60,481 nt of DNA from Myxococcales bacterium (GTDB taxonomy: Bacteria; Myxococcota_A; Polyangia; Polyangiales; Houyiibacteriaceae), in assembly GCA_024643985.1 (NCBI GenBank), contig JAHELW010000003.1, positions 1 to 60,481 on the forward strand, written 5' to 3'. A program made the position numbers and the translations under genes. The notes under the pieces were generated by a model. The model saw only the letters and a list, made by a program, of their open reading frames with translations, was not told the origin of the DNA and did not search any database. This document shows positions 7,326 through 37,092 of this stretch, piece after piece (position 1 is the stretch's first letter; every line of letters begins with the position of its first letter).

Positions 7326-7327
7326 GA

Positions 7328-8818: not shown

Positions 8819-10815
8819 GGGCCCGCCATCTTCGCGACCCGCAGGACCTCGGAAACGCTCCACGCCTGCGCCGGCGCCCCGCCGGGGCGGTGTGGGGCAT
8901 TCCCATCGAACACCTCTCCTACCTGGCCGATGCAGCCCTCCGTGCGAAGATGTGCGCTCAGCGCGGCGAGCACCGGCATCATTTCTTCGCGCGCGGCCTC
9001 CTGCCCCTCGACTGCGGTCACCGCGTCGGCGTAAAGACCGAGGAGCCAAGGCCAGACCGTTCCCTGATGATACGCGCGGTCGCGGTCCGTCTGGCCACCG
9101 CGGTAGAACGGCTGGTATGCCGGATCGTCCGGCGAAAGCGTGCGTAGCCCGACCGGCGTGAGAAGCTTCTCGCGCACCGCCGCAAGCGCTCGCTGCTTGT
9201 GCGCCTTTTGCATCGGTATGCCGGGAAGCAAGAGCGCCCAAAGCTGATTGGGTCGCAGCTTTCCGTCGGGCTGATGTCCGTCGTGCGTGTCGGTCAAGAA
9301 GCCTGCATCTTGAAGCCAGAACTTTTCCTCGAAGTGATCGGACAGTTTCTTCGTGGTTTCACCCCACTTCTCCACGAATTCGGGGCGCAGCTTTTTCGCC
9401 CAGCGGAGCCCGGCGTGCAGGCCGGACAGCCAAAGTGCGTTGAGGTCGACCGCGTAGCCCTGCCTCGGGGTCACGGCGCGACCGTCGACGAGGGCGTCCA
9501 TCCACGTGAGCGCCCAAGGGCCGTGGTCGACGAACAGAAACCCTTCGGGGTCGACGTGAACGCGCGGGTCCGCGCCTGCCGCGATCCGCTCGATCAAATC
9601 GAGGCAGCTCTTCTGCAGCTCCGTAACGCGCCGGCTGCGGGTCCGTTTGCTCGTCAGCGCCGTGGCCCAGATGAAGAGCAGCGATGCATCGATGGCCTCG
9701 GCGTTCGACGGAACGTCCCCGCTCTGCGGGATGTTCGGGACCAGGCCGTTTTCGAGCCGGCCCGCCAGTGACTCGAGAATGTCGAGCGCTTTACCGATTT
9801 CGTCTCGCGCCAAGCAGAGGCCCGGGAGCGCGATCAGCGCGTCTCGAGACCATTCCCCAAACCAGGGATATCCGGCGATTACCCCGGTTCGGCCGTCCGT
9901 GAGCTCGACGAGGTACGCCTCGGCAGCGTCATCGAGCTCCTGCACGAAAGAACGCTGACGCGAAGAGACGGCGCTCAGCATCTGGCCCTCGTGCGAGCTT
10001 GGCGGCTCCGTGCCCAGCCGGATGGAGAAGGAACAGTCTTGCTCCACGCGCAGGCGGAACTCGCCAGGTGTGAAGAGATCCTCGGCATCGTCGTAGCCGC
10101 GATCGTGCTCCCACGCGTAGTGCACCCCCTCATACCAGTGACCGTCCGAGTGAAAGCCACCGGTGGCGCCGTGCATGCTCATGACGAGCGCGGGCACGTT
10201 TTTGTAGGGGTGCATCACGGCCCGGAGAGAGTCGCCGTCGTCGATGTCGACCTGGCCATTCATGAACGGATTGGCGAACGTCAGCTCGTGAATCGGGCGG
10301 CAACGAATCAGCGGCCGCAGCCGGAGGCTGACGGGCCCCGTCGAGCCCTCGATGGAGTACCGGACCCACACGGCGTCGGCTCCGTCCTCCAACCAGAGCT
10401 CTCGCGTGACGGTCAGCCCCGAGAACCGATAGGTCCAGCGTGGCAACGGCTCGAACTGCACGAGGTGCTCGACACCCCTCGGCTCCACCGTATTGCCCCA
10501 ATCGTAGCTGTGGAGGGCAACCTCGTCGGGCTCGCCAACGTCGAACCACTCCTCGAGCTCGGCAACCATGTTGATGGGCTCGCCGACGCCCGGCTCGCGA
10601 ACCGTCAGCAGGCCGTGGTACTTCCGGCGCGGGCAGCGGTCGATCGCGCCCATCGCGAACGAGCCTCTGCCGTTGGTGGCGAGCCATTCGGCATCGGGCG
10701 TCGTGGCCGCAGCGCTGAGCCCGGCGGTATCGTCCGGGGCGCCCGGCGGCCGCGAAAGAAGGCGCAAACCGGACTCGTCGTCGGAGCGCGCAGGGAACCA
10801 ACTAGGCAGGATCAA
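8815..10815 (-). CDS. Glycogen debranching enzyme (amylo-alpha-1,6-glucosidase, GH133-like)
   Basis: EWLATNGRGSFA, RRKYHGLL, IAGYPWFGEWSRD, TWMDA, LRPNQL, GLRTLSP, YHQGTVWPWL, AQAWS. TTG start with GGAGG upstream. Confidence 0.9.
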   Translation of the reverse strand: MILPSWFPARSDDESGLRLLSRPPGAPDDTAGLSAAATTPDAEWLATNGRGSFAMGAIDRCPRRKYHGLLTVREPGVGEPINMVAELEEWFDVGEPDEVALHSYDWGNTVEPRGVEHLVQFEPLPRWTYRFSGLTVTRELWLEDGADAVWVRYSIEGSTGPVSLRLRPLIRCRPIHELTFANPFMNGQVDIDDGDSLRAVMHPYKNVPALVMSMHGATGGFHSDGHWYEGVHYAWEHDRGYDDAEDLFTPGEFRLRVEQDCSFSIRLGTEPPSSHEGQMLSAVSSRQRSFVQELDDAAEAYLVELTDGRTGVIAGYPWFGEWSRDALIALPGLCLARDEIGKALDILESLAGRLENGLVPNIPQSGDVPSNAEAIDASLLFIWATALTSKRTRSRRVTELQKSCLDLIERIAAGADPRVHVDPEGFLFVDHGPWALTWMDALVDGRAVTPRQGYAVDLNALWLSGLHAGLRWAKKLRPEFVEKWGETTKKLSDHFEEKFWLQDAGFLTDTHDGHQPDGKLRPNQLWALLLPGIPMQKAHKQRALAAVREKLLTPVGLRTLSPDDPAYQPFYRGGQTDRDRAYHQGTVWPWLLGLYADAVTAVEGQEAAREEMMPVLAALSAHLRTEGCIGQVGEVFDGNAPHRPGGAPAQAWSVSEVLRVAKMAGP

Positions 10816-10870: not shown

Positions 10871-10887
10871 AGCAGGAGGCGTGCCAA
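10871..10887 (-). promoter_or_regulatory. Sigma-54 -24/-12 promoter of the glycogen operon
   Basis: Minus strand reads TTGGCACGCCTCCTGCT (TGGCACG-N4-CTGC, GG-N10-GC), about 55 bp upstream of the 10815 start. Confidence 0.7.
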
Positions 10888-10949
10888 AGCTTGTCGCGCA
10901 GGCTCGCCCATTTCAGTCACAAGTTGACAACATTCACAGTGGCTTAGGA

Positions 10950-10993
10950 CGCAAAGGCTGCGGTTTCAAGAGGAGAGCGCGCAAGCAGTGCGC
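10950..10993. promoter_or_regulatory. Paired enhancer-binding-protein sites CGCA-N5-TGCG
   Basis: CGCAAAGGCTGCG (10950-10962) and GCGCAAGCAGTGCGC (10979-10993), 30 bp apart, upstream of the sigma-54 box. Confidence 0.6.
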
Positions 10994-10997
10994 GTGG

Positions 10998-12266
10998 CTA
11001 TGCGCGCGTCTCGTGCCACGCTCGCTCCAGCGCCTCCTGGTCGTCTGGGTGTGCGATCGAGATCAGCAGCTGAGCGCGCTCGTTGAGCGTCTTTCCGTAG
11101 AGATCGACCGCGCCGTTCTCGGTAATGACGAACCGGACGTGTGCTCGGGTCGTGACCACACCCGCCCCGGCCCGCAGCGCTGGCACGATTCGGGGAACCC
11201 CCTTCGCGCTACGGCTCGTCAGCGCGATGATCGGCTTGCCGCCCTCCGACGTCAACGCACCGCGGATGAAGTCCATCTGGCCGCCCACGCCCGAAATCAC
11301 GCGGTGCCCAATCGAATCCGCGCAGACCTGCCCGGTGAGGTCGATTTCGATGGCCGAGTTGATCGCGGTCACCTTCGGGTTTCGATTGATCACGTTGACC
11401 CGATTCACGTAGCCGATGTCGTATTGGGTGACCCTCGGGTTGTCGTCGATGAACTCGTAGAGCCGCTTCGTGCCCACGACGAAACCGGACACCGTTCGAC
11501 CCGGATGGACTACTTTCCGGCTGTTGTCGACCGCCCCGCACTCGAGCAAGGGAAGAAGGCCGTCCGACCACATTTCGGTATGTACCCCCAGATGGCGATG
11601 GCTCGTGAGTGAGGCCAGCACCGCGTCGGGAACCGCTCCGATGCCCATCTGGAGCGTCGCTCCGTCTTCGATGAGCTGAGCCGCGTGGTGCCCGATCGCG
11701 CGCTCCTCGTCGCTTGCCGGGGCCGGTGGAGACTCCGGAAGCGGCGCATCGTGCTCGACCAGCCAGTCGAGCTCGTCGATGTGGACGAAACCGTCGCCGT
11801 GCACCCTCGGCATGTGGCGATTGACCTGTGCGATGACCACTTTCGCGGAATCGACAGCGGCCCGCGCAACGTCCACGGACACGCCGAGACTGCAGTACCC
11901 GCGCTTGTCGGGTGGCGAAACTTGAACGAGGGCGATGTCGAGCGCTCGGCGTCCCGAGCGAAACAACTGGGGGATCTCCGAGAGAAAGCAGGGGAGATAG
12001 TCCACTCGGTCTCCGTCGAGCTGCCCGCGCATGTTGTGTCCGACGAAGAGGTTTGCGACGCGAAAGGAGCGAGCGTACTCGGGCCTTGCATAGGCAGCGT
12101 CGCCCGAGGTGTGTAGATGGATGAGCTCCACGTCCCTCAGACGGCTGGTCTCGCCGAGCAGTGCGTCGACCAGGGCGAGCGGCGTGGCGGCCCCACCGTG
12201 AACGAAAACCCTTTGGTTGGAGTTGATGTGGTTGACCGCTTCATCGGCGGCGCAGAGCTTCGACAT
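10998..12266 (-). CDS. Acetyl-CoA hydrolase / 4-hydroxybutyrate CoA-transferase family
   Basis: VFVHGGAATP, DGATLQMGIGAVP, LGVHTEM, INSAIEIDLTGQVCADSIG, SGVGGQMDF, GAGVVTTR. Confidence 0.9.
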   Translation of the reverse strand: MSKLCAADEAVNHINSNQRVFVHGGAATPLALVDALLGETSRLRDVELIHLHTSGDAAYARPEYARSFRVANLFVGHNMRGQLDGDRVDYLPCFLSEIPQLFRSGRRALDIALVQVSPPDKRGYCSLGVSVDVARAAVDSAKVVIAQVNRHMPRVHGDGFVHIDELDWLVEHDAPLPESPPAPASDEERAIGHHAAQLIEDGATLQMGIGAVPDAVLASLTSHRHLGVHTEMWSDGLLPLLECGAVDNSRKVVHPGRTVSGFVVGTKRLYEFIDDNPRVTQYDIGYVNRVNVINRNPKVTAINSAIEIDLTGQVCADSIGHRVISGVGGQMDFIRGALTSEGGKPIIALTSRSAKGVPRIVPALRAGAGVVTTRAHVRFVITENGAVDLYGKTLNERAQLLISIAHPDDQEALERAWHETRA

Positions 12267-12274
12267 GGGACAGA

Positions 12275-12559
12275 CTACTCCGGGGTGTTGGGTTCGGGCT
12301 CGGGCTCGGGAGCCGGCTCGGGCGAAGTGGGCGGGTCCGGCCGCCGCTCGAGGTCGACCTCGAGGACCGGGTAGGCCTCGGGCTGCGTCATCGAGCCGGA
12401 GGTTCTCTCGACGTTTCCAATCGGCGGCTCGACCTTGGTCTCCGGCTCGTACTCTCTTGCTTGACCCATTTCGGTCCCTTGCGCGCCCCGGACGCGGCCG
12501 CTCGCGCAGCCAAGTGCGACGACGAGCAGTAGAGACGCGCACGCGAAGAGTGCTCTCAT
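12275..12559 (-). CDS. Small hypothetical lipoprotein with Pro/Glu-rich tail
   Basis: MRALFACASLLLVVALGC lipobox-like signal; packed tightly between its neighbours in the operon. Confidence 0.55.
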   Translation of the reverse strand: MRALFACASLLLVVALGCASGRVRGAQGTEMGQAREYEPETKVEPPIGNVERTSGSMTQPEAYPVLEVDLERRPDPPTSPEPAPEPEPEPNTPE

Positions 12560-12561
12560 GG

Positions 12562-13365
12562 TCACTGGTGTGCCTTTCGTCGCTCTTCGGCGGTCAAGAG
12601 TGGCTTCACTTCGAGCATCGTGTGGCATTGATTGCAGGCCGCCAGCAGTTGGCCGAAGATCTGTGCCTGCCCCCACGCCGTCGGCTCATCCTCGACCTCC
12701 TCGCCGGGCCGCGGAACGTACTCGTCTTCCCGAACTTTCCCCTCGACGGCCGCCGCAAATGCGAGGTCGTGAACCTCGTAGGCCAGTCGGGTCACTCCGT
12801 CGTGGCTCTCTTGATCCGGGTCGCGCGAGCCGTGCAGGGGCGCTTCGGCCAGCACCTCGGCGGCCGCCTGAAAGCCCGACGTGGAGTCCGCAAGGAGCGA
12901 CTCCCACATTCGCTCGGTTGCCCAATAGTGCCGACGCATGTGCATCTCGAGGTCCTCTCCCTCCGGACTCGGCTCGAGCTCGATCGGAGGGCCTCGGTCG
13001 AGCGCGTGATGGCACTGTCCGCATGCGTACGAAAGCCTGGCGAACGCCATGCACGCTTCCTCGAGGTCGCTCGCCTCTCGCGCTTCCTCCGCGAGCTCCT
13101 TCGTGAGCCGCGCATATTCCTTGCCCTGCTCCGGAGTCGGGACGTGCTTCATGAAAAACACGAGCTTTCGCATCGCTTGCTGAGCCACCTCGAGCTCTCC
13201 GCGGATCAGTGCATTTCGGGCAGCCACGGAGAGCGCTGCGTGCTCTTGCATGACCTGGTCGAAGCCGGCGGGCGTACCGAGCTCCCCGGACTGCTTTCGC
13301 GGCTCGCACTCGCAGCCTCCTGACAGCGCAACCGTCAACCCCATCGCAATGGCCCGCCCCAGCAT
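12562..13365 (-). CDS. Di-heme c-type cytochrome, probable lipoprotein
   Basis: Two CxxCH motifs (CGQCH, CNQCH), each at the end of a helical half; N-terminal hydrophobic stretch ending LSGGC. Confidence 0.7.
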   Translation of the reverse strand: MLGRAIAMGLTVALSGGCECEPRKQSGELGTPAGFDQVMQEHAALSVAARNALIRGELEVAQQAMRKLVFFMKHVPTPEQGKEYARLTKELAEEAREASDLEEACMAFARLSYACGQCHHALDRGPPIELEPSPEGEDLEMHMRRHYWATERMWESLLADSTSGFQAAAEVLAEAPLHGSRDPDQESHDGVTRLAYEVHDLAFAAAVEGKVREDEYVPRPGEEVEDEPTAWGQAQIFGQLLAACNQCHTMLEVKPLLTAEERRKAHQ

Positions 13366-13370
13366 GGATC

Positions 13371-14267
13371 TCAGGGGGCGTCGTCGTGCGTGAGCAGGAG
13401 AGGCACCGGGCTGTCGTGGAGCAGCCGTCGAGCCACGCTGCCGATGAGGAGCCGCTCGATTCCGCTCTTGCCGGTCGTCCCTGCGCAGATCAGCGTGGCT
13501 CCCACGTCGGCCGCAACCTTCAAGATGCCGTCGGCCGGGTCTCCGGTGACGAGATGGGTCTGCACGTCCTTGGCGTCGTCGGGGAACATGGCCTTGGCAT
13601 CGGCTTCGAGCATGTCTTGAAGGCCGAGTCGAAGCGCCTCGCGGCGCTTTTCGGCAGCCTCGCCGACGACTGCGCCCCGGTCGGTGTACTCGCCCCACAC
13701 GTCGAGATAGCTGTGAACCAGGTGCAGTGGCCCCGGCTCGGCGCAGTGAATCGCTTGCGCGACCTCCGCTGCTCGTTTGGCGGGTCCCGAGAAATCGTAG
13801 GAGATGACGACCGAAGTTGGCGCCGTTCCGCCCTGGGTCGGCACGATGATGATCGGGGTGTGAACCGTCTTGATGACTCGCTCGGTGACGCTTCCGTACA
13901 TCAGCTTGGTGACCCCCGTCCGGCCATGGGTGCCGACGATTACGAGGTCGACGTCGTGCTCCTTGGCATAGTCCCGAATCACTTCGTGAACGGTGCCCTC
14001 GCGAATCGCGGTGAAGTGCTCTATGCCCGCGGCCGCGATCCCTTTGGCCTGCGAATCGAGCGCGTCCTGCGCGTCATTCAGGATTCGGGTGACCGCCTCG
14101 GGCCCCGGGCTGTAGCTCAAATCCATGAGCAGATACGTCGGGATCACCGGTGTGTGCAGCAGGTGTAGCTTCGCCGAGCAGTGCTTCGCGAGGTCGATTG
14201 CATAGTCGACCGCATGTTGTGCGTTCTCGGAGAAATCCGTAGGAACCAAGATCTGTTTGATTTGCAT
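13371..14267 (-). CDS. Universal stress protein, tandem UspA domains
   Basis: ILVPTDFS...VIVGTHGRTG...GSVTERV; second domain YDFS...GTTGKSG...GSVARRL. Confidence 0.9.
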   Translation of the reverse strand: MQIKQILVPTDFSENAQHAVDYAIDLAKHCSAKLHLLHTPVIPTYLLMDLSYSPGPEAVTRILNDAQDALDSQAKGIAAAGIEHFTAIREGTVHEVIRDYAKEHDVDLVIVGTHGRTGVTKLMYGSVTERVIKTVHTPIIIVPTQGGTAPTSVVISYDFSGPAKRAAEVAQAIHCAEPGPLHLVHSYLDVWGEYTDRGAVVGEAAEKRREALRLGLQDMLEADAKAMFPDDAKDVQTHLVTGDPADGILKVAADVGATLICAGTTGKSGIERLLIGSVARRLLHDSPVPLLLTHDDAP

Positions 14268-14300
14268 GCCGTGTCTCTCGCTAGGTGGCTCGAAAGCTCG

Positions 14301-14762
14301 CTAACCGCCGAAGGTATCGCTTGGAATGAGGTTATCGCGTAGCAGCTTCTCGTTCACGTATTCCCGCTCCTCTTCCTCGATGTCGCTTCGCAACATGTCC
14401 GCGAGCCTTTCGACGCTCGCAGCGAGGTCGTCCGTCGAGCTAGCCTCCCGGATCTGGTCGACGAGGCGGTCCAACTCCTGACGCTGCTCGGCGTGCTCGG
14501 CATGGAGATGCCGCACCCGCTCCGGTCCGAAACCGTCCGCCTCGTTGATGGCGGGCACCATGTGGGCCTCTTCGAAGCTCATGTGAAGCTCCAGAATCCC
14601 CCGCAGCGCGTATGCGGCTCGCTTCACCTGGCCTGCGTCGACCTTTCCATCGGCGAGGTGGGCAACGCCGGCTTCGAGCTCGGAGAGCATCTGTTCGATT
14701 TCGCGATGCTGGCTCAGGACCTTCCGCCGCACTTCGGAGGGCATCAACGCTTCGTCGCTCAT
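14301..14762 (-). CDS. Hemerythrin (HHE) domain protein
   Basis: QHREI...LHMSFEE...EHAEQR...DIEEEE pattern; RBS GGGAGG before ATG 14762. Confidence 0.75.
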   Translation of the reverse strand: MSDEALMPSEVRRKVLSQHREIEQMLSELEAGVAHLADGKVDAGQVKRAAYALRGILELHMSFEEAHMVPAINEADGFGPERVRHLHAEHAEQRQELDRLVDQIREASSTDDLAASVERLADMLRSDIEEEEREYVNEKLLRDNLIPSDTFGG

Positions 14763-14803
14763 GTGTTCCTCCCGTTTCTCACATCGTTTGCTCTCGAAGG
14801 TAC

Positions 14804-14820
14804 TGCAAACTCTACGCCAA
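14804..14820 (-). promoter_or_regulatory. Sigma-54 promoter of the hemerythrin-usp-cytochrome c-CoA transferase operon
   Basis: Minus strand reads TTGGCGTAGAGTTTGCA (GG-N10-GC, TTGCA at -12). Confidence 0.7.
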
Positions 14821-14850
14821 TGATGTAGCAGCAATTGGCTTCACGCGACA

Positions 14851-14892
14851 CGCAACTTCTGCGCGGCGCGGGAATCTTTCGCAGAACATGCG
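14851..14892. promoter_or_regulatory. Paired enhancer-binding-protein sites CGCA-N5-TGCG between divergent sigma-54 promoters
   Basis: CGCAACTTCTGCG (14851-14863) and CGCAGAACATGCG (14880-14892), 29 bp apart. Confidence 0.6.
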
Positions 14893-14933
14893 TGTTTTTC
14901 GCTATGCTCTACCGCTAGAACCGTACCTCCGGC

Positions 14934-14950
14934 TTGGCACGGAGCTTGAT
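14934..14950 (+). promoter_or_regulatory. Probable sigma-54 promoter of the usp-usp pair
   Basis: TTGGCACGGAGCTTGAT: perfect -24 element, but -12 is TTGA rather than TTGC. Confidence 0.5.
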
Positions 14951-14967
14951 ACGGATAAGGGGTGCAC

Positions 14968-15447
14968 ATGGACCAGCCTCGAACCATTCTCGTCGGCACC
15001 GATTTCTCCGACATCTCGGACGAGGCGCTCCGCGCGGCGTCTCTCTATGCGCGGACGTTCAACTCGCGTGTCCTCGTCACGCACGTCTTCGACCCGACGC
15101 CGAACGTCCCGCCGGTCGTGTGGTCCCGTCCGGATCTTCTCGAGCGAAACATTCGCGTCGAAATCGAGGAGGCGATCCGCGAGACCCTGACCGGCAAGAC
15201 CGCCGAGCTGTTGCAGGGTGTTGCCGAAGTGGAGCTGAGCGTGATTCAGCATCCATCGCCCGGCCGCGCTCTGGTCGAGATGGCGGAAGACGAAGATGTC
15301 GACCTGGTAATCCTCGGCTCTCACGGACGGAGCGGCCTTTCTCGTGCCTTTCTCGGCAGCGTCGCCGAGCGGGTCGTCCGTCACGCGCCTTGCCCGGTCT
15401 TGGTGGTCCGCGGTCGCTGCGATCACGAGCCAAAGGAGGGAGAGTAG
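14968..15447 (+). CDS. Universal stress protein (UspA)
   Basis: ILVGTDFS...VILGSHGRSG...FLGSVAERVVRHAPCPVLVV. Alternative GTG start at 14962. Confidence 0.9.
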   Translation: MDQPRTILVGTDFSDISDEALRAASLYARTFNSRVLVTHVFDPTPNVPPVVWSRPDLLERNIRVEIEEAIRETLTGKTAELLQGVAEVELSVIQHPSPGRALVEMAEDEDVDLVILGSHGRSGLSRAFLGSVAERVVRHAPCPVLVVRGRCDHEPKEGE

Positions 15448-15450
15448 CCA

Positions 15451-15861
15451 GTGTCGTTGATCCCACGTTTGGTAGTCGCGTACGATTTCTCCGATCCCGC
15501 GCGGCGTGCGTTCGAGCTGGCCGTGTTCATGGGACGTCAGCTCGATGCGGCGGTGCACGTGGTGACCGTGCTGGACTCCAAAGAGTCCGACGCCGAAGTC
15601 GCGAGCAAAGAGCTCGAGGACCTGCGTCAGCTGCTCGAGATGCGAACCTGCGGCACCGTCACGGCCGACGACGTGAAGCTCGAGTGCCACGCCTTGGTGG
15701 GCGAGCCCGCAGACGCGATCGTCGACATGGCGCGCGAGCTCGACGCTCCGCTGATCATTTGCGGAACGACGGGCAAAGGAGCGGTCGCTCGGACTCTGCT
15801 CGGCAGCGTGTCGCACGAGCTCGTGCACAAGAGCGGTGCGATCGTGATGTCCGTGCCCTGA
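15451..15861 (+). CDS. Universal stress protein (UspA)
   Basis: LVVAYDFS...CGTTGKG...LLGSVSHELV. Confidence 0.85.
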   Translation: MSLIPRLVVAYDFSDPARRAFELAVFMGRQLDAAVHVVTVLDSKESDAEVASKELEDLRQLLEMRTCGTVTADDVKLECHALVGEPADAIVDMARELDAPLIICGTTGKGAVARTLLGSVSHELVHKSGAIVMSVP

Positions 15862-15870
15862 GACGGCGCG

Positions 15871-17259
15871 CTAAGAGCCGGGGCCGACGAACGGCGCCTC
15901 GACGATGCGGCTCCCCTTGCGCTCGTCGTGCCCCTCCATCGAGATCGTCAGCCGAAGCTTGATACCCGGCTTCATTTCGTCGGCAGACAGCATGGCGAGG
16001 ATCGGCAGATAGGTGCTTCCAAGCGAGTCGAGCTCGACGCGCGTCTGGGGAATGATGTACTCGATGCCGGTCTCGCTCTCGGGCTCGACCAGGAATACCT
16101 GACGGTCGGACGTCTTGTTCACGAGGTGAATGCGGACGGAGTTACGCACCTGCCCATCGACGACTGCAAAAGGCGCCCCCTCGTGCCGGAGCACGTTGGC
16201 CTCGAACGCTGAGCTCTGCGCGAACGCGAAGACCGCTCCGACGAGCCAAAGGGTTGCGATACCGCCATAGAAAAGTAGACGGGGACGGCTCATGCGCTTC
16301 GACTTGCCCTCGAGGCCGTTGAGCGAATCGTAACGGACCAGCCCCTGCGGGCGGTCGATTTTGGCCATGATTTCGTCGCAGGCGTCGACGCAGGCGGCGC
16401 AGCCCACGCATTCCATTTGGAGGCCGTTTCGAATGTCGATTCCGGTGGGGCAGACGACCACGCAGCGTTTGCAGTCGATGCAGTCGCCATTGCTCGGATC
16501 GCTCGCTTTGCCGCGCGGTTCGCCGCGGTTGTAGTCGTAGCCGATGACCATCGTGTCCCGGTCGGTCATCGCCGACTGCAGGCGGCCGTAGGGGCAGATA
16601 ATCAAACAGAGCTGCTCCCGGAACCATGCGAAGTTGAACCAGAGGATCGCCGACATCACGATCACCCACGTGAACGCCGTCGGGTGCTCGGCAGGGCTAC
16701 GCTGCACCATGTCGACCAGCGATGGAAGCGAGACGAAGTAGCTGATGAACACGTGCGAGAGCGACAGCGCGATGACGATGTAGACCGCGTGCTTCAGCGT
16801 CTTGCGCCAGAGCTTGTCGAACGTGAGACCGGCTGCGTTGCGGCGTAGCCGCTGCGCGCGAGGGCCTTCGATGAGTCGCTCGATTCGCCGGAACACGCCT
16901 TCGAGGAACACCGTGTGCGGACATGCGTACCCGCACCAAAGCCGGCCCTTGACGGCGGTCACGACGACGAGCGTCAAGCCGATGCCGCTCAGGAGGAAGA
17001 ACATCAGCCAGAAGTCCTGAGCGTTGAACACCCCGCCGAACAAGTAGAACCGGCGATTCACGATGTCCATGAAGACCGCGGGATGCCCGCCGATCTTCAC
17101 GAACGGCAGGAGCACGTAGATCGCGATCAGGGCTGCGAAGATGATGTAGCGGAGCCGCGTGAAGCGGCCCTTCACGTCCGCGGGGTGAACGTAGTTGCGG
17201 CTGCCGTCCGAACGAATAGAGCTAGCGTGTTCGTCTACGACTGGCAGCCTCGTCGTCAT
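15871..17259 (-). CDS. ccoG: cbb3 oxidase accessory 4Fe-4S protein CcoG
   Basis: GRLWCGYACP, REQLCLIICPYGRLQS, CIDCKRCVVVCPTGIDIR, ECVGCAACVDAC. Confidence 0.93.
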   Translation of the reverse strand: MTTRLPVVDEHASSIRSDGSRNYVHPADVKGRFTRLRYIIFAALIAIYVLLPFVKIGGHPAVFMDIVNRRFYLFGGVFNAQDFWLMFFLLSGIGLTLVVVTAVKGRLWCGYACPHTVFLEGVFRRIERLIEGPRAQRLRRNAAGLTFDKLWRKTLKHAVYIVIALSLSHVFISYFVSLPSLVDMVQRSPAEHPTAFTWVIVMSAILWFNFAWFREQLCLIICPYGRLQSAMTDRDTMVIGYDYNRGEPRGKASDPSNGDCIDCKRCVVVCPTGIDIRNGLQMECVGCAACVDACDEIMAKIDRPQGLVRYDSLNGLEGKSKRMSRPRLLFYGGIATLWLVGAVFAFAQSSAFEANVLRHEGAPFAVVDGQVRNSVRIHLVNKTSDRQVFLVEPESETGIEYIIPQTRVELDSLGSTYLPILAMLSADEMKPGIKLRLTISMEGHDERKGSRIVEAPFVGPGS

Positions 17260-17873
17260 GGGTCGCTTTTAGGGTCACCCGCTTCGTCGGCAACTGCATC
17301 GCCGCCGGGTTCCCACACCTTTGCATTCTCTTCGACGGGCTTGCCACCCTCCAGGTTCGTGTTTCGCATCGTCAGCACGTATGCGACCACTTGATTCACG
17401 CCGGTTTCACCGAGAATCGGAGCCCACGGCGGCATCCCCTTGGCCGCGATGCCGTTCGTGACGATCGCGTGGATGTTCGTCGGCGCCCCGCCGTATACCC
17501 AGTATTCATCGGTGAGGTTCGAACCAAGTCCGACTCGGCCCTGACCCTTGTCGTGACAAGCCGAGCATTGCGCCGTGAAGATCTCTTTCCCTGCGGCGAC
17601 CGCCGTCTCGTCGAGCGCGAGCGCATCGAGCGATTCGTCGGTCACGATGCTTCGCTCGGCCTCGGCCGCGGCGACTGCGTCGGCGTACTTCTCCGGCTGA
17701 AGCTTTCCGATGGAGTACTCGTGGTAGTAGAACCAATACACCAAGCCGAAGGCGATAGCGCCGTAGAACGTCAGCAGCCACCACGTTGGGAGGTTGTTGT
17801 CGGCTTCCTCGATGTCGTCATAGACGTGCAGGATCTCGCCTTGTATTTCGTCGGTTCGCTTGCCCTCACTCAT
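17256..17873 (-). CDS. ccoP: cbb3 oxidase subunit III (mono-heme CcoP)
   Basis: HVYDDIEEADNNLPTWW N-terminal motif, a single CSACH, NLTDEYW, GMPPW. Confidence 0.88.
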   Translation of the reverse strand: MSEGKRTDEIQGEILHVYDDIEEADNNLPTWWLLTFYGAIAFGLVYWFYYHEYSIGKLQPEKYADAVAAAEAERSIVTDESLDALALDETAVAAGKEIFTAQCSACHDKGQGRVGLGSNLTDEYWVYGGAPTNIHAIVTNGIAAKGMPPWAPILGETGVNQVVAYVLTMRNTNLEGGKPVEENAKVWEPGGDAVADEAGDPKSDP

Positions 17874-18051
17874 GGGGTACCTCCAGCTCCTCTTCGAGCG
17901 GAATGCGTGCGTTGTGATCCACCTCTGATTTGCTCATTCGCAGCACGCGAATGACCACGACCAGGAACACCGTGAAAAACAGAAGCAGAGCCAGCACCGG
18001 GTAGAGGAGCGCGGGGCTCTGCGCGAAAAATTCAGCGGCAAAACGGCTCAT
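17866..18051 (-). CDS. ccoQ: cbb3 oxidase subunit IV CcoQ
   Basis: 61 aa, single TM helix, ARIPLEE motif, located between ccoO and ccoP. Confidence 0.75.
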
Positions 18052-20423
18052 CGTCCCACCTCCCGCGCGTCTGCGGCCGCGACGGGGCCCTGGCCGTCTT
18101 CGCCCTCATCAGGCGCCTCTTCCGGCGGGGCTTTTCCGAGGCGCTGAAGGTATGCGATCAGCGCAACGAGCCGGCTGTTGACGACCAGCTCGCAGCCGTC
18201 GGCCATCTCCTCGCACACCTCGACGTTCGCTTCCCCGGCGAGCCCGGCCGCAATGGCCGTTGCGGCAGCCTGCGCGTTCTGCTCGCTCATTTGGATTTCG
18301 TCGGCCCCGTACGGAACGCCCACCGCGCGGAGCGCCCGCATCTTGTCGGGAGTGCCCGCAAAGTCGATCGTAGAAGTAGCGAGGTGCGGGTACGGCGGCA
18401 TGTTCGACCCGACCGAGATCTCCCGCGGGTTGATCATGTGCTTGTAGTGCCAGGTGTCAGCGTACTTGCCGCCGACCCGAGCGAGGTCCGGACCGATTCG
18501 GCGGGACCCCCACTGGAACGGATGGTCGAAGATCGAGTCTTCGATGCTCGAGACCTCGCCATACCGTGCCGTCTCCCAGGTGAACGGTCGGATCATCTGG
18601 GAATGACAGGTGTAGCAGCCCTCGCTGATGAAGACGTCCCGACCTTCCAGCTCGAGCGGATGATAGGGGACGTTCTTCGTGGTGCGCATCGTTTCGGGTA
18701 CGGAGACGATCATCGGGATGATCTCGGCGACGCCACCGATCAGGATGGCAATGGTGACCAGCACCGTGAACACCCCGGCACGTCCTTCGAGGACGCTGTG
18801 CCAGGGCTCCCGTTCTTTGCCACGATCGCGGATCATGATCGCAATTGCTGCGACACCCCACATGAGGGCGACGATTGCGAGCATGGTGCTGACGAGACCG
18901 TCGAACAGCGCCATGCCGAACAAGAGCGCTATGACGACGATCGACGCCATCACGGGCTGACCAAAGAGGAGCTTCGGCCAGGGCACCTCGCGTACGCGCG
19001 GCTCCGTGACGACCGCCACCTCGATCTCGCCGTCGACGGGAGCGCCGCTTCGAGCCGTCTTCACGAGGTTCCACGCCATCAGCAGAATCCCCGCGATGTA
19101 GAGAATGCCCGCGATGAATCGCGCCCAGTACATCGGACGAATCGCGAGATAGGTCTCGACGAAGTTCGGGTAGAGAAGCCCGCCCGTATCGCTCATCGCG
19201 CGCCACATGAGACCCTGCGTGATGCCGGCAACCCACATCGCGACCACGTAGAGGAGAATGCCGATGGTCGCGATCCAGAAGTGGAAGTTGGCGGCCGCGC
19301 GCGAGTGAAGCTTGGTGCCGTAGAGGCGCGGAACCGCCCAGTAGAACATGCCGGCAGCCATGAGGCCGTTCCAACCGAGGCCGCCGCTGTGCACGTGGCC
19401 GATGATCCAGTCCGTGTAGTGTGCGAGGCCGCTCACGCTCTTGATCGAAAGCAACGGACCCTCGAACGTGCTCATGCCGTAGAAGGTCACGCCGGCGGCG
19501 AAGAACTTGAGCACGGGGTCGACCCGGAGCTTGTCCCAAGCACCCCGCAGCGTGAGCAGACCGTTGAGCATACCGCCCCAGCTCGGCGCCCAGAGCATCA
19601 AGCTGAAGACCATTCCTAGGCTCTGCGCCCAATCGGGCAGGGCGGTGTAGAGAAGGTGGTGCGGGCCCGCCCAGATGTAGATGAAGACCAGGCCCCAGAA
19701 GTGGACGATCGAAAGCCGGTAGGAGAACACCGGCCGCTCCGCGGCTTTCGGCAGGAAGTAGTACATGATGCCGAGAATCGGCGTCGTCAGGAAGAAGGCG
19801 ACCGCGTTGTGTCCGTACCACCACTGCACGAGCGCGTCTTGGACGCCTGCGTAGACCGAATAGCTCTTGAGCCAGGTGACGGGAATCGCGAAGCTGTTGA
19901 CGACGTGAAGCACCGCGACCGTGATGATCGTCGCGATGTAGAACCAAATCGCGACGTAAAGATGCTTCTCGCGGCGATTTGCAAGCGTCCAGAAGAAGTT
20001 GACTGCGAAGACGATCCAGATGACCGCGATCGCGATGTCGATGGGCCACTCGAGCTCGGCATATTCCTTCGATGCGGTGATCCCCAGCGGGAGAGTGACC
20101 GCCGCCGCCACGATGATGAGCTGCCAGCCCCAGAAGTGGACCGAAGAAAGGATGTCGGACGCCAGTCGAGCCTTCGCTAGGCGCTGCGTCGAGTAGTAGA
20201 CGCCGGCAAACAGCATGTTGCCGACGAACGCGAAAATGACCGCGTTGGTATGCAAAGGCCGAAGGCGACCAAACGACAGTAGCGGCGGGAAGTTCGCCGG
20301 CCAGAACGCGAGCTGGAGCGCGATGAGGACGCCGACCAGCATGCCGACGATTCCGAAGATGATCGACGCCCAGATGAACTGGCGGACTACCTTGTCGTTA
20401 TAAACGATCCGCTGGGTTTCCAT
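18048..20423 (-). CDS. ccoNO: Fused cbb3 oxidase subunits I/II (CcoN-CcoO)
   Basis: [27 protein letters not shown] (CcoN ligands); [29 protein letters not shown] (CcoO). Confidence 0.95.
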
Positions 20424-20598
20424 GTTCCTCTTCCTTCTCCGTCGTGGTTGGGGTCATCGGCTTTTCGTCGTCAAGCGGCAGCAGGGCGAGGCGATCGACC
20501 TGATCAAACGTGCCCTGCCGCACGGTCCACACGAAGGCCGCTACGGCGGCGCCGACCAGTGCCACGCAAACGAATATCAACAAGATCAAGATCTCCAT
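20398..20598 (-). CDS. ccoS: cbb3 oxidase maturation protein CcoS
   Basis: [10 protein letters not shown]...[11 protein letters not shown]...LLPLDD. Confidence 0.85.
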
Positions 20599-22985
20599 CG
20601 GAGCCTCTTTCCGGAAAGCATCATCACGGTGTATGCAAGCGTGAGAAGCGAGCTGAGCGGCATTAGCACAGCCGCGACCCAGGGCTTCATCCACCCCGCC
20701 ATGGCGATCGATACCGCGACCAAATTGTATGCGATTGCAAACGCCAAGATGCGGCGCACCACCTGCGCCAAGGTTTCCGCGGCGCGCAGGACTTGCGCCA
20801 CCGGATGCAACCCCGGGGACACGAAGTAGAAGTCACATCGTGAGGCCATGAACGGTCGATTTACGGCGGGTGTTCCCGAGCAGGCCGCCTCTCTCATCGC
20901 GACCCGATCGTTCAAGCCGTCTCCGACCAGCAAAGTCCGTGCCGGATCGTTCTCGCGCACATAGGCTGCCTTCTGCTCGGGGCTCTGCGCTCCGATGCAC
21001 GCGTCGGCGGACATCCCGAGACTCGCGCCGAGCGTCGTCACTCTGGGCTGTGCGTCGCCGCTGAGAATCGCCAGCTCGTAGCCGCGTTCCTCGAGTGTCT
21101 CGATCTCGTGTCGCGCGCCCGGGCGGAGCTGCTCGTCGGTCTCGACCGCAGCGATGCGCCGGTCGTTTGCCGAGAACACGACGTCTCCTGCATCTCCCAC
21201 GGCGGCCGGAGCCGCCCAGCTCGGTGCGCCGAGCTTGTAGTGCACACCTCGGTGCTCGGCCGAGACTCCGTAGCCGGTGTGCTCCCGGACCTCGAGCTCC
21301 GCGAATCGGGCGGCACGATGACCCTCGAGCGCCCTACGAACGGCCACGCTCTTCGGGTGCGCGCTTCGCGCCACCATGTTGTAGAGCACGGTGGTTTGAT
21401 CTTCCGACAAGGCGCGTAGAGGTGCGACATCGACCACTTCGAGGGTCCCCGTCGTCAGCGTTCCCGTCTTGTCGAACACGATGCGGGTCATCGACCGCAC
21501 GCGATCGAGGAAGTCTCCGACTCGAACGAAGATGCCGCTCCGTCGAAGCTGTGTCAGCACGAGCTCGTAAGCGAGAGGGGCCGCGATTCCGAACGCGCAC
21601 GGACACGTGACGACGAGCACGGCGGTGCCGACCTCGATCGCACGGAGCGGCTCGTCGCTCCGCAACCACCAGAAGCCGATCGCGAGCGCTGCCAGCGTGA
21701 TGACCCCAACCACGTAGTAGCGCGACAAGCGCGACCACCAGTCCGTCGTCAGCGGTCCGTCGCCTCGTGTCGCCGGGTCTCGCCCGAGCAGCCCGATCAG
21801 AGAGGAACCGGCGAAATCCGTCGCCGCCACGCCTGAAAAGGCCCTTTCGCCTACGTTGAAGGCGCCTGCGGGAACCGTGGCCCCGTCCTCGAAGCGTCGC
21901 GGACGGCTCTCTCCATCGATCCAGTCGAGCGAGCAGCTGGCGACTTCGCCGAGCAACTGCAGGTCGACCGGTACGAGATCGCCCGGCGCGACGAGCAGCT
22001 GGTCGCCCTTCCGAACAGCGATGCAGTGCACGATGCGCACGACTCCGTCCTTGACCTCCCGGGTGAGAAGGCCTTGGGTTCCGTCGTCTGCGAGGAGCTG
22101 CAGTCGGTTTCGCTCGAGCATTCGCTGCTGGAGCCAGCGACCGACGAGCATGAGCGCGATGAAGACGGTCAAGGTGTCGACATAGACCGCTTCGCCGGAC
22201 GCGAAGAAGAAGGACCACGTCGATCCGGCGAAGGCGAGCACGATGCCAAGCGCGATCGGGACGTCGAGATGGAGCGTTCGTTGGCGCACGGCTCGAGCCG
22301 CGGAGCCGATGAAGACCGAGCCTCCGATCAGGACGGCGAGAACGCCGGCCGCGTAGCTCAGGTCGTTCAAGATCTCGTAGATCGGCCCTTCTCGAAGCCC
22401 GAGGTACATCGCTGCCGCGAAGAGCATGACGTTCGCGGCAAGTGCGGCGCAGATGCCGACGCGTAGGAGCAGATCATCGGAGGCTCGCGCGCCTCGCGCT
22501 CTCGCAGGGCCGAGGAGGTAGCCGAGATCTTCGACGGCTGAGACCCAGTCGGAAAGCGCAAACTCCGGCGAAATTCGCAGGTCGATCCGGCCGAGCGCCG
22601 GGTTGATCGACATCATCCCCGCGCGAGGACCGCCGTGGCGTCGAAAGAGCTCCTCGATCAACCAAACACACGCAGCGCAGTGAATTCCCTGAATGTCGAG
22701 CTCCAAACGGGTGACTCCGCGATCGGCCGTCCGCTCTTCCTCGATCAGCTCGAGCCACTTGTGGTCGATGCGGCGGGAATCGATGTCTGCCGGAGGAAGA
22801 CCGGGGCCCCGTCTGAGATCGTAGTAGCGCGTCAGCCCGGCTTTGCGGAGAATGCCGTTTACTGCGCGGCAGCCCCGGCAACAAAACGGGGCGAACGCGT
22901 CGCTGACCAGCGGCTGGGCGCAGTGCGCGCATCGCGAGACCTCGAGCGAAGGCGTTTCACAGACGGCGGTTTGGGGCGCAGTCAC
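20586..22985 (-). CDS. ccoI: Heavy-metal P1B-type ATPase CcoI/FixI
   Basis: CAHC...FCCRGC, GIHCAAC, CPC, DKTGTLT, GDGLND. GTG 22985 overlaps the upstream TGA. Confidence 0.9.
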   Translation of the reverse strand: MTAPQTAVCETPSLEVSRCAHCAQPLVSDAFAPFCCRGCRAVNGILRKAGLTRYYDLRRGPGLPPADIDSRRIDHKWLELIEEERTADRGVTRLELDIQGIHCAACVWLIEELFRRHGGPRAGMMSINPALGRIDLRISPEFALSDWVSAVEDLGYLLGPARARGARASDDLLLRVGICAALAANVMLFAAAMYLGLREGPIYEILNDLSYAAGVLAVLIGGSVFIGSAARAVRQRTLHLDVPIALGIVLAFAGSTWSFFFASGEAVYVDTLTVFIALMLVGRWLQQRMLERNRLQLLADDGTQGLLTREVKDGVVRIVHCIAVRKGDQLLVAPGDLVPVDLQLLGEVASCSLDWIDGESRPRRFEDGATVPAGAFNVGERAFSGVAATDFAGSSLIGLLGRDPATRGDGPLTTDWWSRLSRYYVVGVITLAALAIGFWWLRSDEPLRAIEVGTAVLVVTCPCAFGIAAPLAYELVLTQLRRSGIFVRVGDFLDRVRSMTRIVFDKTGTLTTGTLEVVDVAPLRALSEDQTTVLYNMVARSAHPKSVAVRRALEGHRAARFAELEVREHTGYGVSAEHRGVHYKLGAPSWAAPAAVGDAGDVVFSANDRRIAAVETDEQLRPGARHEIETLEERGYELAILSGDAQPRVTTLGASLGMSADACIGAQSPEQKAAYVRENDPARTLLVGDGLNDRVAMREAACSGTPAVNRPFMASRCDFYFVSPGLHPVAQVLRAAETLAQVVRRILAFAIAYNLVAVSIAMAGWMKPWVAAVLMPLSSLLTLAYTVMMLSGKRLRWRS

Positions 22986-23713
22986 GGTCCGTGGTGGTGG
23001 TCGTGGTCGTTCGCGGGTTGGCCGTCGGTGCTCTGACCGTGAGCTGGGCCGTGGTGACCCTCCCCGTGACGCAGCGCGTGCACGGGTCGTATCACGAAGA
23101 GGATCGCCCCGAGAGCGAGCACGACCGCTAGCGCGCGCGTGGTCGTAGGCCTCGGGCGTCGGGAAAACCGCTCGAACACCCACGCTGCGCCAACGAGACC
23201 GACGCCGCTGACGACGGCAAATGCGAGCATGGTCGCAGAGCCTGCGAGCATGCCTCCAGTCGAAGCCGCGATCAGCACGGCGGCAGCCAGAGCGCCGCAA
23301 GGAAGCAGCGCGGTCCCGAGCCCGACGAAAAAGGGATGCCGACCGAGTGCCTGAAGCGCACGGGTACCCCGTGACTCGGACGCCACTTCGTTCTTGGCGC
23401 GGAGCGTGACGAGCGGTGATTCAGGACGCCGCCACAGTCGAAACGCTGCGAGACCCAGGCCGATCGCCAGCGACCAGCTCAGGAGCGCTCCGCCCCAGGC
23501 GCCGGGAAGGCTGGTTGCCGTGGCGCCTCCGACGGCGCCCGCGATGGCCCCGAGGGTCGAATAGCTGATGAATCGCCCGAGCTGGTAGCGCCCTTGTCCG
23601 GATGCACCGGGCCGCCCGCTGCACGCGTACGCGGCCAGCGGGCCGCACATCGCGGTGCAGTGCGGAACCGATGCGAGGCCTGCGGCGGCCCCGGCAATCA
23701 CCGCCGTCCACAT
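22982..23713 (-). CDS. DsbD_2 / TauE-SafE-like membrane protein of cco clusters, His-rich C-terminus
   Basis: HCTAMCGP, YQLGRFISY, LLPCG motifs; C-terminal HGEGHHG...HDHHH. Confidence 0.8.
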   Translation of the reverse strand: MWTAVIAGAAAGLASVPHCTAMCGPLAAYACSGRPGASGQGRYQLGRFISYSTLGAIAGAVGGATATSLPGAWGGALLSWSLAIGLGLAAFRLWRRPESPLVTLRAKNEVASESRGTRALQALGRHPFFVGLGTALLPCGALAAAVLIAASTGGMLAGSATMLAFAVVSGVGLVGAAWVFERFSRRPRPTTTRALAVVLALGAILFVIRPVHALRHGEGHHGPAHGQSTDGQPANDHDHHHGP

Positions 23714-23794
23714 GCGCGCTTCTTAGGGTCAGTCATCGGCACAGTCACCGCGGAACCCCTCGATGGACCTCCGGCCCCCGTTTATACCCGAAGA

Positions 23795-23807
23795 CGCATA
23801 TTTTGCG
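23795..23807. promoter_or_regulatory. CGCA-N5-TGCG site in the divergent cco / ywiC-nqr promoter region
   Basis: CGCATATTTTGCG, the same motif as at 10950, 10980, 14851 and 14880. Confidence 0.5.
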
Positions 23808-23875
23808 CGACGCTCTTCAATCCCGGGCGAAAATGCCGTGGTGCGTACCGGGACGGGTGCTATCCCGACAAGGCG

Positions 23876-24724: not shown

Positions 24725-24735
24725 AGGAGAAGGCT

Positions 24736-25149
24736 GTGCTCGCTAAAGACATCATGACCGAAAACCCCGTGACCTCGTCGGAGCTCATGTCCGTCAGCGA
24801 AGCGCTCGGGTTGCTGTACGAGCTCGATGTTCGCCACCTTCCGGTGGTTCGCGGCAACGAGCTCGTCGGCATCGTGAGCGATCGTGACCTGCGCGGCTTC
24901 ACGGCGCCCGACGAAGACACGGCAATCGAAGCCGTCGACGACGCCAACAGCTCGAGCGTCGGCAACTTCATGAATACGAACCCGGTCCGGGTCGATCCCG
25001 AGACGAATCTTCGAGAGGTCGTCGAGCTGATGCTTCTGCATCGAGTCGGCGCGATTCCCGTATGTGACCTCGATACGGGTGACCTTCTCGGGATCGTGAG
25101 CTACGTCGACCTTCTGCGGGTTCTTCAGGAGACCCTGGAACGCACGTGA
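24736..25149 (+). CDS. Stand-alone CBS-pair protein
   Basis: AKDIMTENPV...VRHLPVV...GIVSDRDL...FMNTNPV...GIVSYVDLL. GTG start after GAGGAG. Confidence 0.88.
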   Translation: MLAKDIMTENPVTSSELMSVSEALGLLYELDVRHLPVVRGNELVGIVSDRDLRGFTAPDEDTAIEAVDDANSSSVGNFMNTNPVRVDPETNLREVVELMLLHRVGAIPVCDLDTGDLLGIVSYVDLLRVLQETLERT

Positions 25150-26459: not shown

Positions 26460-26500
26460 TGGCGTCCCGTACCAAGATTGGCTAGTCTGCGCGGTCTCCA

Positions 26501-31127: not shown

Positions 31128-31140
31128 AGGGGGCGGCGCC

Positions 31141-35993: not shown

Positions 35994-36059
35994 CGCACGG
36001 GAGGATCGCCGCAATTGCGACGCCTGGCAAGCCATGGGTCGAAGCATCACGAGCCAACT

Positions 36060-36105
36060 TCGGAGCGGGTGAAGAGATTCGAACTCTCGACCTCGACCTT
36101 GGGAA
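36060..36105 (-). repeat. att site (displaced 3' half of tRNA-Gly)
   Basis: TCGGAGCGGGTGAAGAGATTCGAACTCTCGACCTCGACCTTGGGAA, identical to 39154-39199. Confidence 0.92.
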
Positions 36106-37078: not shown

Positions 37079-37092
37079 TTTGTTCGGGCAAG

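Follow-up and report, generated by a model that had tools for sequence, protein, structure and literature searches.

A conserved tandem dyad and a predicted NmpR-type sigma-54 regulon linking glycogen, hemerythrin, universal stress protein and cbb3 oxidase genes in an uncultured myxobacterial lineage

The locus and its repeated motif

In a 60,481-nucleotide (nt) stretch of a Myxococcales bacterium genome (the window; contig JAHELW010000003.1, here C256), the inverted repeat CGCA-N5-TGCG recurs near genes for glycogen turnover, hemerythrin, universal stress proteins (Usp) and cbb3 oxidase. The first group of genes is a minus-strand glycogen operon (1873..10815) that encodes a debranching enzyme (GDE_N/GDE_C), a GT4/GT5 glucan synthase, a GH57 enzyme and a fusion open reading frame (ORF). 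It is followed on the same strand by a hemerythrin operon (10998..14762; hemerythrin, tandem Usp, two ORFs without a family match and acetyl-CoA hydrolase/transferase) and then, on the plus strand, by the genes of two universal stress proteins, UspA and UspB (14968..15861). The cbb3 cluster lies beyond them on the minus strand, with ccoS (FixS), a fused ccoNO, ccoQ (FixQ), ccoP and ccoG (15871..20598) encoding the oxidase and maturation proteins, and with the genes of a DsbD_2-family membrane protein and the P-type ATPase CcoI (20586..23713). A tightly packed plus-strand group, comprising a ywiC-like gene, a CBS pair, a DHH-CBS protein and nqrA onward (23876..32367), completes the region. All results presented here come from computational sequence analysis.

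The window is one of 288 contigs of a 3.52-Mb genome with 64.7% G+C, estimated to be 80.6% complete with 5% contamination. Genes were called by codon log-likelihood, which assigns 92.8% of the genome to coding DNA and 7.2% of bases to intergenic DNA; an earlier GC3-based caller, which covered only 75% of the genome, was replaced. The relatives used for comparison are kin rather than independent samples, and the conservation counts should be read accordingly.

An exact pattern search of the window returned 12 copies of the 13-mer CGCA-N5-TGCG compared with 2.98 expected, a number that none of 100 dinucleotide-preserving shuffles reached. Five of these copies (10950, 10980, 14851, 14880 and 23795) had been listed in a preliminary description of this DNA, and all five are exact at those positions. 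The other seven comprise a further pair (20755/20785) and five single copies within coding DNA (14211, 18840, 23234, 49163 and 52906), which are not clearly over the coding background. The enrichment that the preliminary description had claimed is also seen genome-wide. With a spacer of 5 nt the 13-mer occurs 168 times, compared with 106-138 times for spacers of 1-4 and 6-12 nt, and in intergenic DNA the corresponding numbers are 43 and 6-13, an approximately fourfold enrichment. The full 15-mer, GCGCA-N5-TGCGC, is present in 28 genome copies, 14 of them intergenic, compared with 0-1 intergenic copies at spacers of 3, 4, 6 and 7 nt. The dyad has an invariant GCA-N5-TGC core. The motif is real and conserved. 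According to the available text of PMC11841059, the activator NmpR of Myxococcus xanthus binds GCGCA-N5-TGCGC and a sigma-54 site is required, in agreement with the NmpR consensus given in the preliminary description.

Six pairs of copies in the genome lie less than 200 bp apart, and five of the six start 29-30 bp from each other, with about 0.02 expected by arithmetic from the counts. This start-to-start distance corresponds to a gap of 14-15 nt between sites; in relatives it is 29-31 bp. A uniform promoter rule was then applied, which called for an exact site, an outward-facing box containing GG and GC with at least 9 of 12 consensus positions at 20-140 bp, and a gene start within 300 bp. 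Ten promoters were found at spacer 5, with site-to-box distances of 41-129 bp, compared with 0-2 at spacers 2, 3, 4, 6, 7 and 8. The sigma-54 gene, rpoN, is located on contig C15, and the boxes taken as sigma-54 promoters follow a TGGCACG-N4-TTGCW-like pattern with GG and GC 12 nt apart. The three sigma-54 boxes proposed earlier are present in the window at 10871-10886 and 14804-14819 on the minus strand and 14935-14950 on the plus strand. The glycogen and hemerythrin operons each have a consensus box, UspA has a non-canonical one and ccoI a weak one, and there is none at 23795.

The spacer-0 palindrome CGCATGCG is likewise enriched in intergenic DNA, with 36 copies compared with 6-13 for most other spacers, and may be a separate regulatory motif.

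Glycogen promoter

The glycogen operon is preceded by a pair of sites and a sigma-54 box. The distal site (10979..10993), conserved in relatives, is a perfect 15-mer that lies 6 bp past the acetyl-CoA hydrolase stop codon. The proximal site (10949..10963) retains the exact 13-mer core with two mismatches to the 15-mer, and is 30 bp start-to-start from the distal site and 63 bp from the box. The box itself, TGGCACGCCTCCTGCT (10871..10886, minus strand), matches 11 of the 12 consensus positions and gives a predicted transcription start at about 10860.

Using the debranching enzyme as query, 57 relative loci were collected, nearly all from metagenome-assembled genomes and most of them labelled Myxococcales, Polyangiales, Sandaracinaceae or delta proteobacterium, with a few labelled otherwise. 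The order of the glycogen genes is conserved, and the order from ccoNO to the glycogen genes is kept in about 35 of the 57 loci. In 52 loci the sequence in front of the debranching enzyme gene extended for 260 bp or more. An exact pair is present there in 30 of them and a pair with at most one mismatch per site in 38, with spacings of 30 bp (29 loci), 29 bp (5) and 31 bp (4). A sigma-54 box with at least 9 of 12 positions was found in 43 of the 52 loci, including all 38 that bear the pair, and the 14 pairless loci include all six in which the debranching enzyme is less than 45% identical. By way of control, 19 of 1140 random 270-bp windows from the same loci contained an exact pair. The half-sites at the glycogen promoter are fixed across relatives and the five spacer bases vary. 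Because the site pair and box are conserved in 38 of 52 relatives, the predicted membership of the glycogen genes in an NmpR-like regulon, an extension already suggested in the preliminary description, is strongly supported.

The fusion ORF of this operon (1873-6126, approximately 1418 codons) joins PF05693, the eukaryote/archaeal-type glycogen synthase, with DUF3417 and an alpha-glucan phosphorylase domain, and is conserved as a single hit in relatives.

Divergent hemerythrin and UspA promoters

Two sites occupy the region between the hemerythrin operon and uspA. The sigma-54 box of the hemerythrin operon, TGGCGTAGAGTTTGCA (14804..14819, minus strand), which matches 9 of 12 positions and places the predicted start at about 14793, is 31 bp from site 1 (14850..14864). 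Site 2 (14879..14893) starts 29 bp from site 1 and is 42 bp from a plus-strand sigma-54-like box, TGGCACGGAGCTTGAT (14935..14950), in which the -12 element is non-canonical, TTGA for TTGC. The start predicted from this box, at about 14961, leaves UspA a leader of only about 7 nt.

In an alignment of 36 sequences, the window included, 35 have the pair, 30 of them in exact form, with a spacing of 29 bp in 34. The minus-strand hemerythrin box occurs in all 36 sequences. The plus-strand box is conserved in its unusual form, TGGCAY-N5-TTGA, in 33 of the 36, and TTGC is found in none.

Further conserved blocks were seen in the same region. TTTAGCAG.ATTTC (window 14822-14838) adjoins the minus-strand -24 element and TTTTCGCTATGCT (window 14896-14908) lies between site 2 and the plus-strand box, both kept across the 36 species; a related block, TCTAGCAG, is found beside an alanine dehydrogenase/transketolase site elsewhere in the genome. 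Leaders of about 5-7 nt are predicted both for UspA (14961-14968) and for the WS/DGAT-nmpR genes described below (L024 2684-2689), which suggests short-leader or leaderless translation, or else that the boxes have been misjudged.

Single site at 23795 and the Na+-NQR genes

A single site (23794..23808), with one mismatch to the 15-mer, lies between the divergent dsbD_2-ccoI and ywiC-CBS-DHH/CBS-nqr genes. Near it no sigma-54 box was detected in our scans of the window, as the preliminary description had also noted, and a scan of 23700-23900 showed no sigma-70 or terminator consensus. At the position of a potential partner (23824-23836, 30 bp to the right) the window has three mismatches, where three relatives (L107, L117 and L118) have an exact site. 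Six relatives carry a box of at least 9 of 12 positions about 30 bp from the equivalent site, facing dsbD_2-ccoI; at the same position the window reads CC for GG and CC for GC, the box being lost here. The loss of partner and box, together with the lack of either a sigma-54 or a sigma-70 consensus, would fit a decaying remnant without present function, the Nqr genes lying outside the regulon in this genome, and we regard this reading as evenly balanced between right and wrong. The site itself speaks against decay, as it is exact here and in 16 of 22 relatives of the genus. In addition, in L061-L063, which do not have the cco cluster next to this region, ywiC-CBS-DHH/CBS is preceded by a pair that is exact or nearly so and by an 11/12 box. 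Repression of sigma-70 promoters is also within the repertoire of NtrC-type proteins, as at glnAp1, and such a role for the 23795 site would be possible in principle.

The membership of Na+-NQR in the regulon, raised as a possibility in the preliminary description, thus finds a counterpart in the pair and box of L061-L063 and lacks one in the window. A link between Na+-NQR and the regulon in this genome is only possible, because the 23795 site has neither a sigma-54 box nor an intact partner here, and the assignment of the whole ywiC-to-nqr group is correspondingly uncertain.

Site pair within ccoI

The third tandem pair (20754..20798; cores at 20755 and 20785, 30 bp apart) is embedded in the last 210 nt of ccoI. 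A candidate internal promoter box on the minus strand (20662..20681), with GG and GC 12 nt apart and a weak match to the sigma-54 consensus, lies between the proximal site, 73 bp upstream of it, and the ccoS start codon, about 56 nt further on. Of 22 relatives of the genus, 13 have both sites exact and 20 at least one. Over the last 400 codons of ccoI, third-codon-position entropy is lowest in the box block (20662-20681; 0.28, compared with a mean of 1.03) and next lowest in a stretch that covers site 1. A Mann-Whitney comparison of the motif and box positions with the rest gave p = 0.0012, a value that is indicative only because the sequences are related. In more distant genera (L125, L127 and L130), pairs are found in intergenic DNA beside ccoI or ccoN. 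The ccoI-internal pair and box are read as a predicted internal promoter for ccoS-ccoNOQP-ccoG. The connection of the motif with the cbb3 genes, which the preliminary description had drawn through 23795, would accordingly run not through that site but through the pair at 20755/20785, which it had overlooked.

It could be argued that no promoter exists within ccoI and that the conservation arises from coding constraint, codon choice or a signal at the RNA level, such as translational coupling of ccoS. The region does encode a conserved transmembrane segment, and the box fits only about half of the sigma-54 consensus. We nevertheless consider this explanation unlikely. Third-codon conservation peaks exactly at the box and site 1, where rare A/T-ending codons are kept, and the ten promoters that satisfy the uniform rule have site-to-box distances (41-129 bp) that bracket the 73 bp seen here. 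Moreover, the pair is intergenic beside ccoI or ccoN in other genera, and NmpR itself uses an intragenic promoter for pilR, inside pilS, according to the available text of PMC11841059.

The position of the cco cluster varies among relatives. In four of them (L061-L063 and L090) ywiC-CBS-DHH/CBS(-nqrA) directly follows UspB, the cco cluster that occupies the interval in the window (15861-23876) being absent there, which indicates that the cluster was inserted or relocated within the family.

Regulator locus and identity of the binding protein

A candidate regulator is encoded on contig C232, where the motif is found on both sides of an activator/kinase gene pair. The contig carries, on the minus strand, a tandem Usp and a CBS pair, followed by a perfect site with a two-mismatch partner. 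On the plus strand, WS/DGAT is followed by an activator with REC-AAA+-HTH_8 architecture (Pfam). The minus strand then encodes a protoglobin-HisKA-HATPase_c kinase together with a Usp, after which come a 12/12 sigma-54 box and another site. In all seven genus loci, the Usp-kinase operon is preceded by a site approximately 70-75 bp upstream of a box of at least 10/12.

The C232 activator is 53-61% identical to activators that stand beside protoglobin kinases in four other families, and tandem sites lie in or beside several of these activator/kinase modules. In L168 an nmpU-nmpT-nmpS-nmpR cluster consists of a protoglobin kinase, a receiver protein, a REC-PAS-kinase, a site pair and an activator 61% identical to that of C232. 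In L205, which belongs to the same family but to another genus, a relay kinase and a REC-kinase (nmpU-nmpS) accompany an activator that is 71% identical. The module resides about 27-30 kb from ccoI on the same contig in two near-complete relatives, which argues against a binning artefact.

In M. xanthus, as described in the available text of PMC11841059, five of seven NmpR-bound promoters have a gap of 14-15 nt between sites, and the targets comprise the CBS gene heading the nmpR operon, nmpUTS, Usp, P-type ATPase and cbb3, hemN-hemerythrin and pilR. As the motif is enriched, is fixed in its spacing, accompanies sigma-54 boxes, is deeply conserved and is co-located with a regulator gene, and as its targets overlap with the published NmpR regulon, we predict with high confidence that the dyads are enhancer sites of one NtrC-family sigma-54 activator, an orthologue of M. 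xanthus NmpR encoded on C232.

The motif might instead be bound by another regulator, either one of the 16 other clear sigma-54 activators in a genome with about 17 strong Sigma54_activat matches, or an unrelated dimeric factor, which would suit the many single perfect sites that have no sigma-54 box. One candidate, an FHA-type activator on contig C212, stands alone among the remaining activator genes in having a tandem site close by, a pair with a box about 450 bp downstream of the gene. The neighbouring tandem site was found in none of the 24 loci of genus relatives, and this candidate was rejected as the binder. By comparison, sites flank the NmpR/protoglobin-kinase module in all seven genus loci and in several other families, and both motif and spacing equal those of the experimentally defined NmpR site in the available text of PMC11841059. 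Binding by a different regulator is on these grounds very improbable.

Kinase and signalling pathway

The best solved-structure match of the C232 kinase is the globin domain of AfGcHK (PDB 5ohe, E 1e-30). Its phosphotransfer helix is like the one in L168 NmpS and unlike the one in L168 NmpU, and its core is 38.1% identical to L168 NmpS compared with 27.6% to L168 NmpU. In a maximum likelihood tree of 25 kinase cores, from which one long multi-domain row was left out, nine activator-adjacent protoglobin kinases group with the NmpS cores of L168 and L205 (support 85/97), and L205 NmpS is the sister of the protoglobin kinases from this genus (96/93). NmpU cores of the relay type are grouped apart from these (88/85); three rows labelled NmpS-like, from more distant systems, fall outside the NmpS group.

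Among the NmpRSTU proteins, for which the preliminary description had suggested seeking orthologues, an NmpR orthologue is thus predicted beside a protoglobin kinase on C232, and NmpS was not found. The L168 and L205 NmpS queries matched only kinase cores in this genome and in four genomes of the genus that are 98-100% complete. For the L205 query the top match in all five genomes was the protoglobin kinase (41-44% identity, E 1e-46 to 1e-50), the next match being at about 1e-32. No NmpT was found beside the module in the four genus loci that cover 20 kb, and no genome-wide search aimed at NmpT was made. As NmpS and NmpT were not found, this does not appear to be a full NmpRSTU system. Since, in addition, the kinase core is of the NmpS type, the protoglobin kinase probably phosphorylates the NmpR orthologue directly.

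The possibility that the receiver domain of the activator had become NmpS/NmpT-like was also considered and rejected, its alpha-1 helix remaining NmpR-like.

Because the targets include a high-affinity oxidase, hemerythrin and Usp, the regulon is expected to be on at low oxygen. If it is, oxygen binding must switch the kinase off or to phosphatase mode. We put forward, tentatively and as a proposal that may well prove wrong, that the four-protein NmpRSTU relay has collapsed to a protoglobin-NmpS-type kinase and NmpR, both in this Polyangiales clade and in several other myxobacterial families, that oxygen turns the kinase off or into a phosphatase, and that the outcome is a hypoxic dormancy and storage regulon convergent with that of DosR. 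The effect of oxygen on the kinase would then be opposite to that on the oxygen-activated AfGcHK/NmpU, and the programme would consist of glycogen turnover, WS/DGAT lipid storage, lipases, multiple Usp and CBS proteins and cbb3. A literature search found no description of such a two-gene form; a supplementary synteny figure of PMC6211767 may bear on it.

Predicted mechanism

By analogy with NtrC and NmpR, two activator dimers would bind two dyads 29-30 bp apart. Phosphorylation, with the protoglobin (heme) histidine kinase beside nmpR as the presumed sensor, would lead to an activator oligomer that contacts sigma-54 RNA polymerase at a GG-N10-GC box 30-100 bp away and opens the promoter by ATP hydrolysis. 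On this model the glycogen operon would be driven from the pair 10950/10980 through the box at 10871-10886. The single pair 14851/14880 would serve both the hemerythrin-Usp-acetyl-CoA hydrolase operon and the divergent UspA-UspB genes, and ccoS-ccoNOQP-ccoG would be driven by the internal promoter whose site pair is embedded in the ccoI end. The same arrangement of sites is found before the Usp-protoglobin kinase genes, WS/DGAT-nmpR, a gene in a lipase neighbourhood and several genes of no known family; at the first two of these it may provide for self-regulation.

Several observations weigh against this model. The genome is 80.6% complete, and the assignment of sites to intergenic or coding DNA depends on our own gene caller. 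Orthology of the C232 activator to M. xanthus NmpR is drawn from gene context, domain architecture and the shared motif. NmpS was not found, nor was NmpT beside the module, where no dedicated genome-wide NmpT search was made. The UspA box has GA for the nearly invariant -12 GC in addition to its leader of about 7 nt, and the box within ccoI matches the consensus poorly beyond GG and GC, so that its conservation could reflect another constraint. About 30 single intergenic sites without a sigma-54 box adjoin unrelated metabolic genes, and no recognisable sigma-54 box was found at the pair before two duplicated lipase genes on contig C38.

That the copies are merely chance palindromes in a G+C-rich genome, or short hairpin or terminator elements such as the distal glycogen site 6 bp past a stop codon might suggest, is scarcely credible given that no shuffle reached the observed count, that enrichment is confined to spacer 5 among spacers of 1-12 nt and to intergenic DNA, that pair spacing is fixed, that no T tract follows the sites and that half-sites are invariant across species as spacers vary, as expected of a protein-binding site rather than a stem.

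Comparison with known systems

Compared with NmpRSTU of M. xanthus, as presented in the available text of PMC11841059 and PMC6211767, the system described here has the same recognition sequence, the same two-site layout with a 14-15 nt gap and the same predicted dependence on sigma-54. The REC-AAA+-HTH architecture of the activator, the nearby protoglobin kinase and the predicted self-regulation of the kinase/activator operon are also shared, as are the target classes CBS protein, Usp, hemerythrin and a cbb3 locus with P-type ATPase. The differences concern both signalling and targets. The hybrid kinase NmpS was not found in this genome and four nearly complete genomes of the genus, and the protoglobin kinase is chimeric in character, its phosphotransfer helix and core being NmpS-like. 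The glycogen operon, acetyl-CoA hydrolase, WS/DGAT and the lipase-neighbourhood gene are added here, none being among the NmpR targets described in the available text, and the cbb3 genes would be transcribed from a promoter within ccoI, not from one located before the ATPase gene. These added targets, together with the two-component form, are what would be new relative to the known NmpR system.

AfGcHK of Anaeromyxobacter sp. Fw109-5 is, in the available accounts, an NmpU homologue; oxygen switches it on, and its phosphate goes to a receiver protein. The C232 kinase has the same heme protoglobin domain joined to HisKA and HATPase (compare PDB 5ohe). In contrast to AfGcHK, it has a core that falls among those of the NmpS type, and the activator itself is its probable partner.

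The arrangement also recalls enteric glnAp2, where NtrC, a REC-AAA+-HTH activator that oligomerises upon phosphorylation, acts from tandem dyads upstream of a -24/-12 promoter. Layout and activator type are alike, whereas the two systems differ in recognition sequence and in signal; the present sites are nearer to the promoter (31-93 bp), and one pair would serve two divergent promoters.

In Mycobacterium tuberculosis, the heme sensor kinases of DosRST control several Usp, a CBS-pair protein and a WS/DGAT triacylglycerol synthase at low oxygen. The likeness to this gene list is a functional analogy only, DosR being of the NarL type with sigma-70 promoters and a different motif, compared with the NtrC-type, sigma-54 arrangement here. 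Both the Usp parallel with DosRST and the control of cbb3 oxidase genes by FixLJ-FixK or FNR are mentioned in the available text of PMC11841059. The latter systems resemble the present one in the low-oxygen induction, expected here, of ccoNOQP and ccoGHIS sets. FixK and FNR are CRP/FNR-type dimers that act at sigma-70 promoters through a TTGAT-N4-ATCAA box. The sites described here differ in having a 5-5-5 geometry and a tandem arrangement upstream of -24/-12 boxes.

NmpR has so far been characterised in one species, and its targets in other myxobacteria are stated as unknown in the available text of PMC11841059. Our literature search found no link between NmpR and glycogen and, judging by title or abstract, no cross-species study of the NmpR regulon. 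The present comparison points to a conserved NmpR-type regulon, with cross-species footprints, in an uncultured lineage of a different Myxococcota class, and to a site architecture conserved across the phylum. It would tie oxygen sensing to carbon storage (glycogen, WS/DGAT), and would provide one example of an enhancer pair shared by two divergently oriented sigma-54 promoters and another of an enhancer and promoter located within coding sequence. The protoglobin-kinase/activator pair may offer a simple system for studying the way in which a globin domain controls the output of a kinase, including the sign of that control.

Further sites and minor observations

Among the single intergenic sites that lack a box, many have the form of a perfect palindrome, GCGCAA-N3-TTGCGC, whose centre is A/T-rich (for example C74:3331, C104:4066, C108:28755, C129:5861, C169:6444 and C265:15607). 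Their neighbours include genes for alanine dehydrogenase/transketolase, PEP carboxykinase, alcohol dehydrogenase and patatin, and 13 of 21 genus loci have the alanine dehydrogenase/transketolase site in exact form. Such sites may represent a second mode of the same protein, or another factor that shares the motif. A TGCTA element was considered as a shared sigma-70 -10 box beside the single sites and was discarded, as it is not enriched (2 of 43 sites, compared with 2.9% of control positions).

Pfam searches (E up to 0.01) gave no convincing family for seven regulon ORFs (C38, C50, C51, C53 and window 12275-12565 and 12562-13365), and only weak sub-threshold matches for those of C231 and C212. 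In an Rfam and tRNA scan of the window, tRNA-Gly at 39156-39229 was the only feature detected. A segment of approximately 1.9 kb (35993-37924) stands out by its lower G+C content (0.59) and contains one weak short gene call, with no Rfam or tRNA match.

On contig C38 (L026), two near-identical promoter regions (2780-3000 and 4190-4400), each with a tandem pair, precede lipase-family genes, and a third, diverged copy (5520-5720) has a site and an 11/12 box. The near identity of the first two copies points to a recent duplication.

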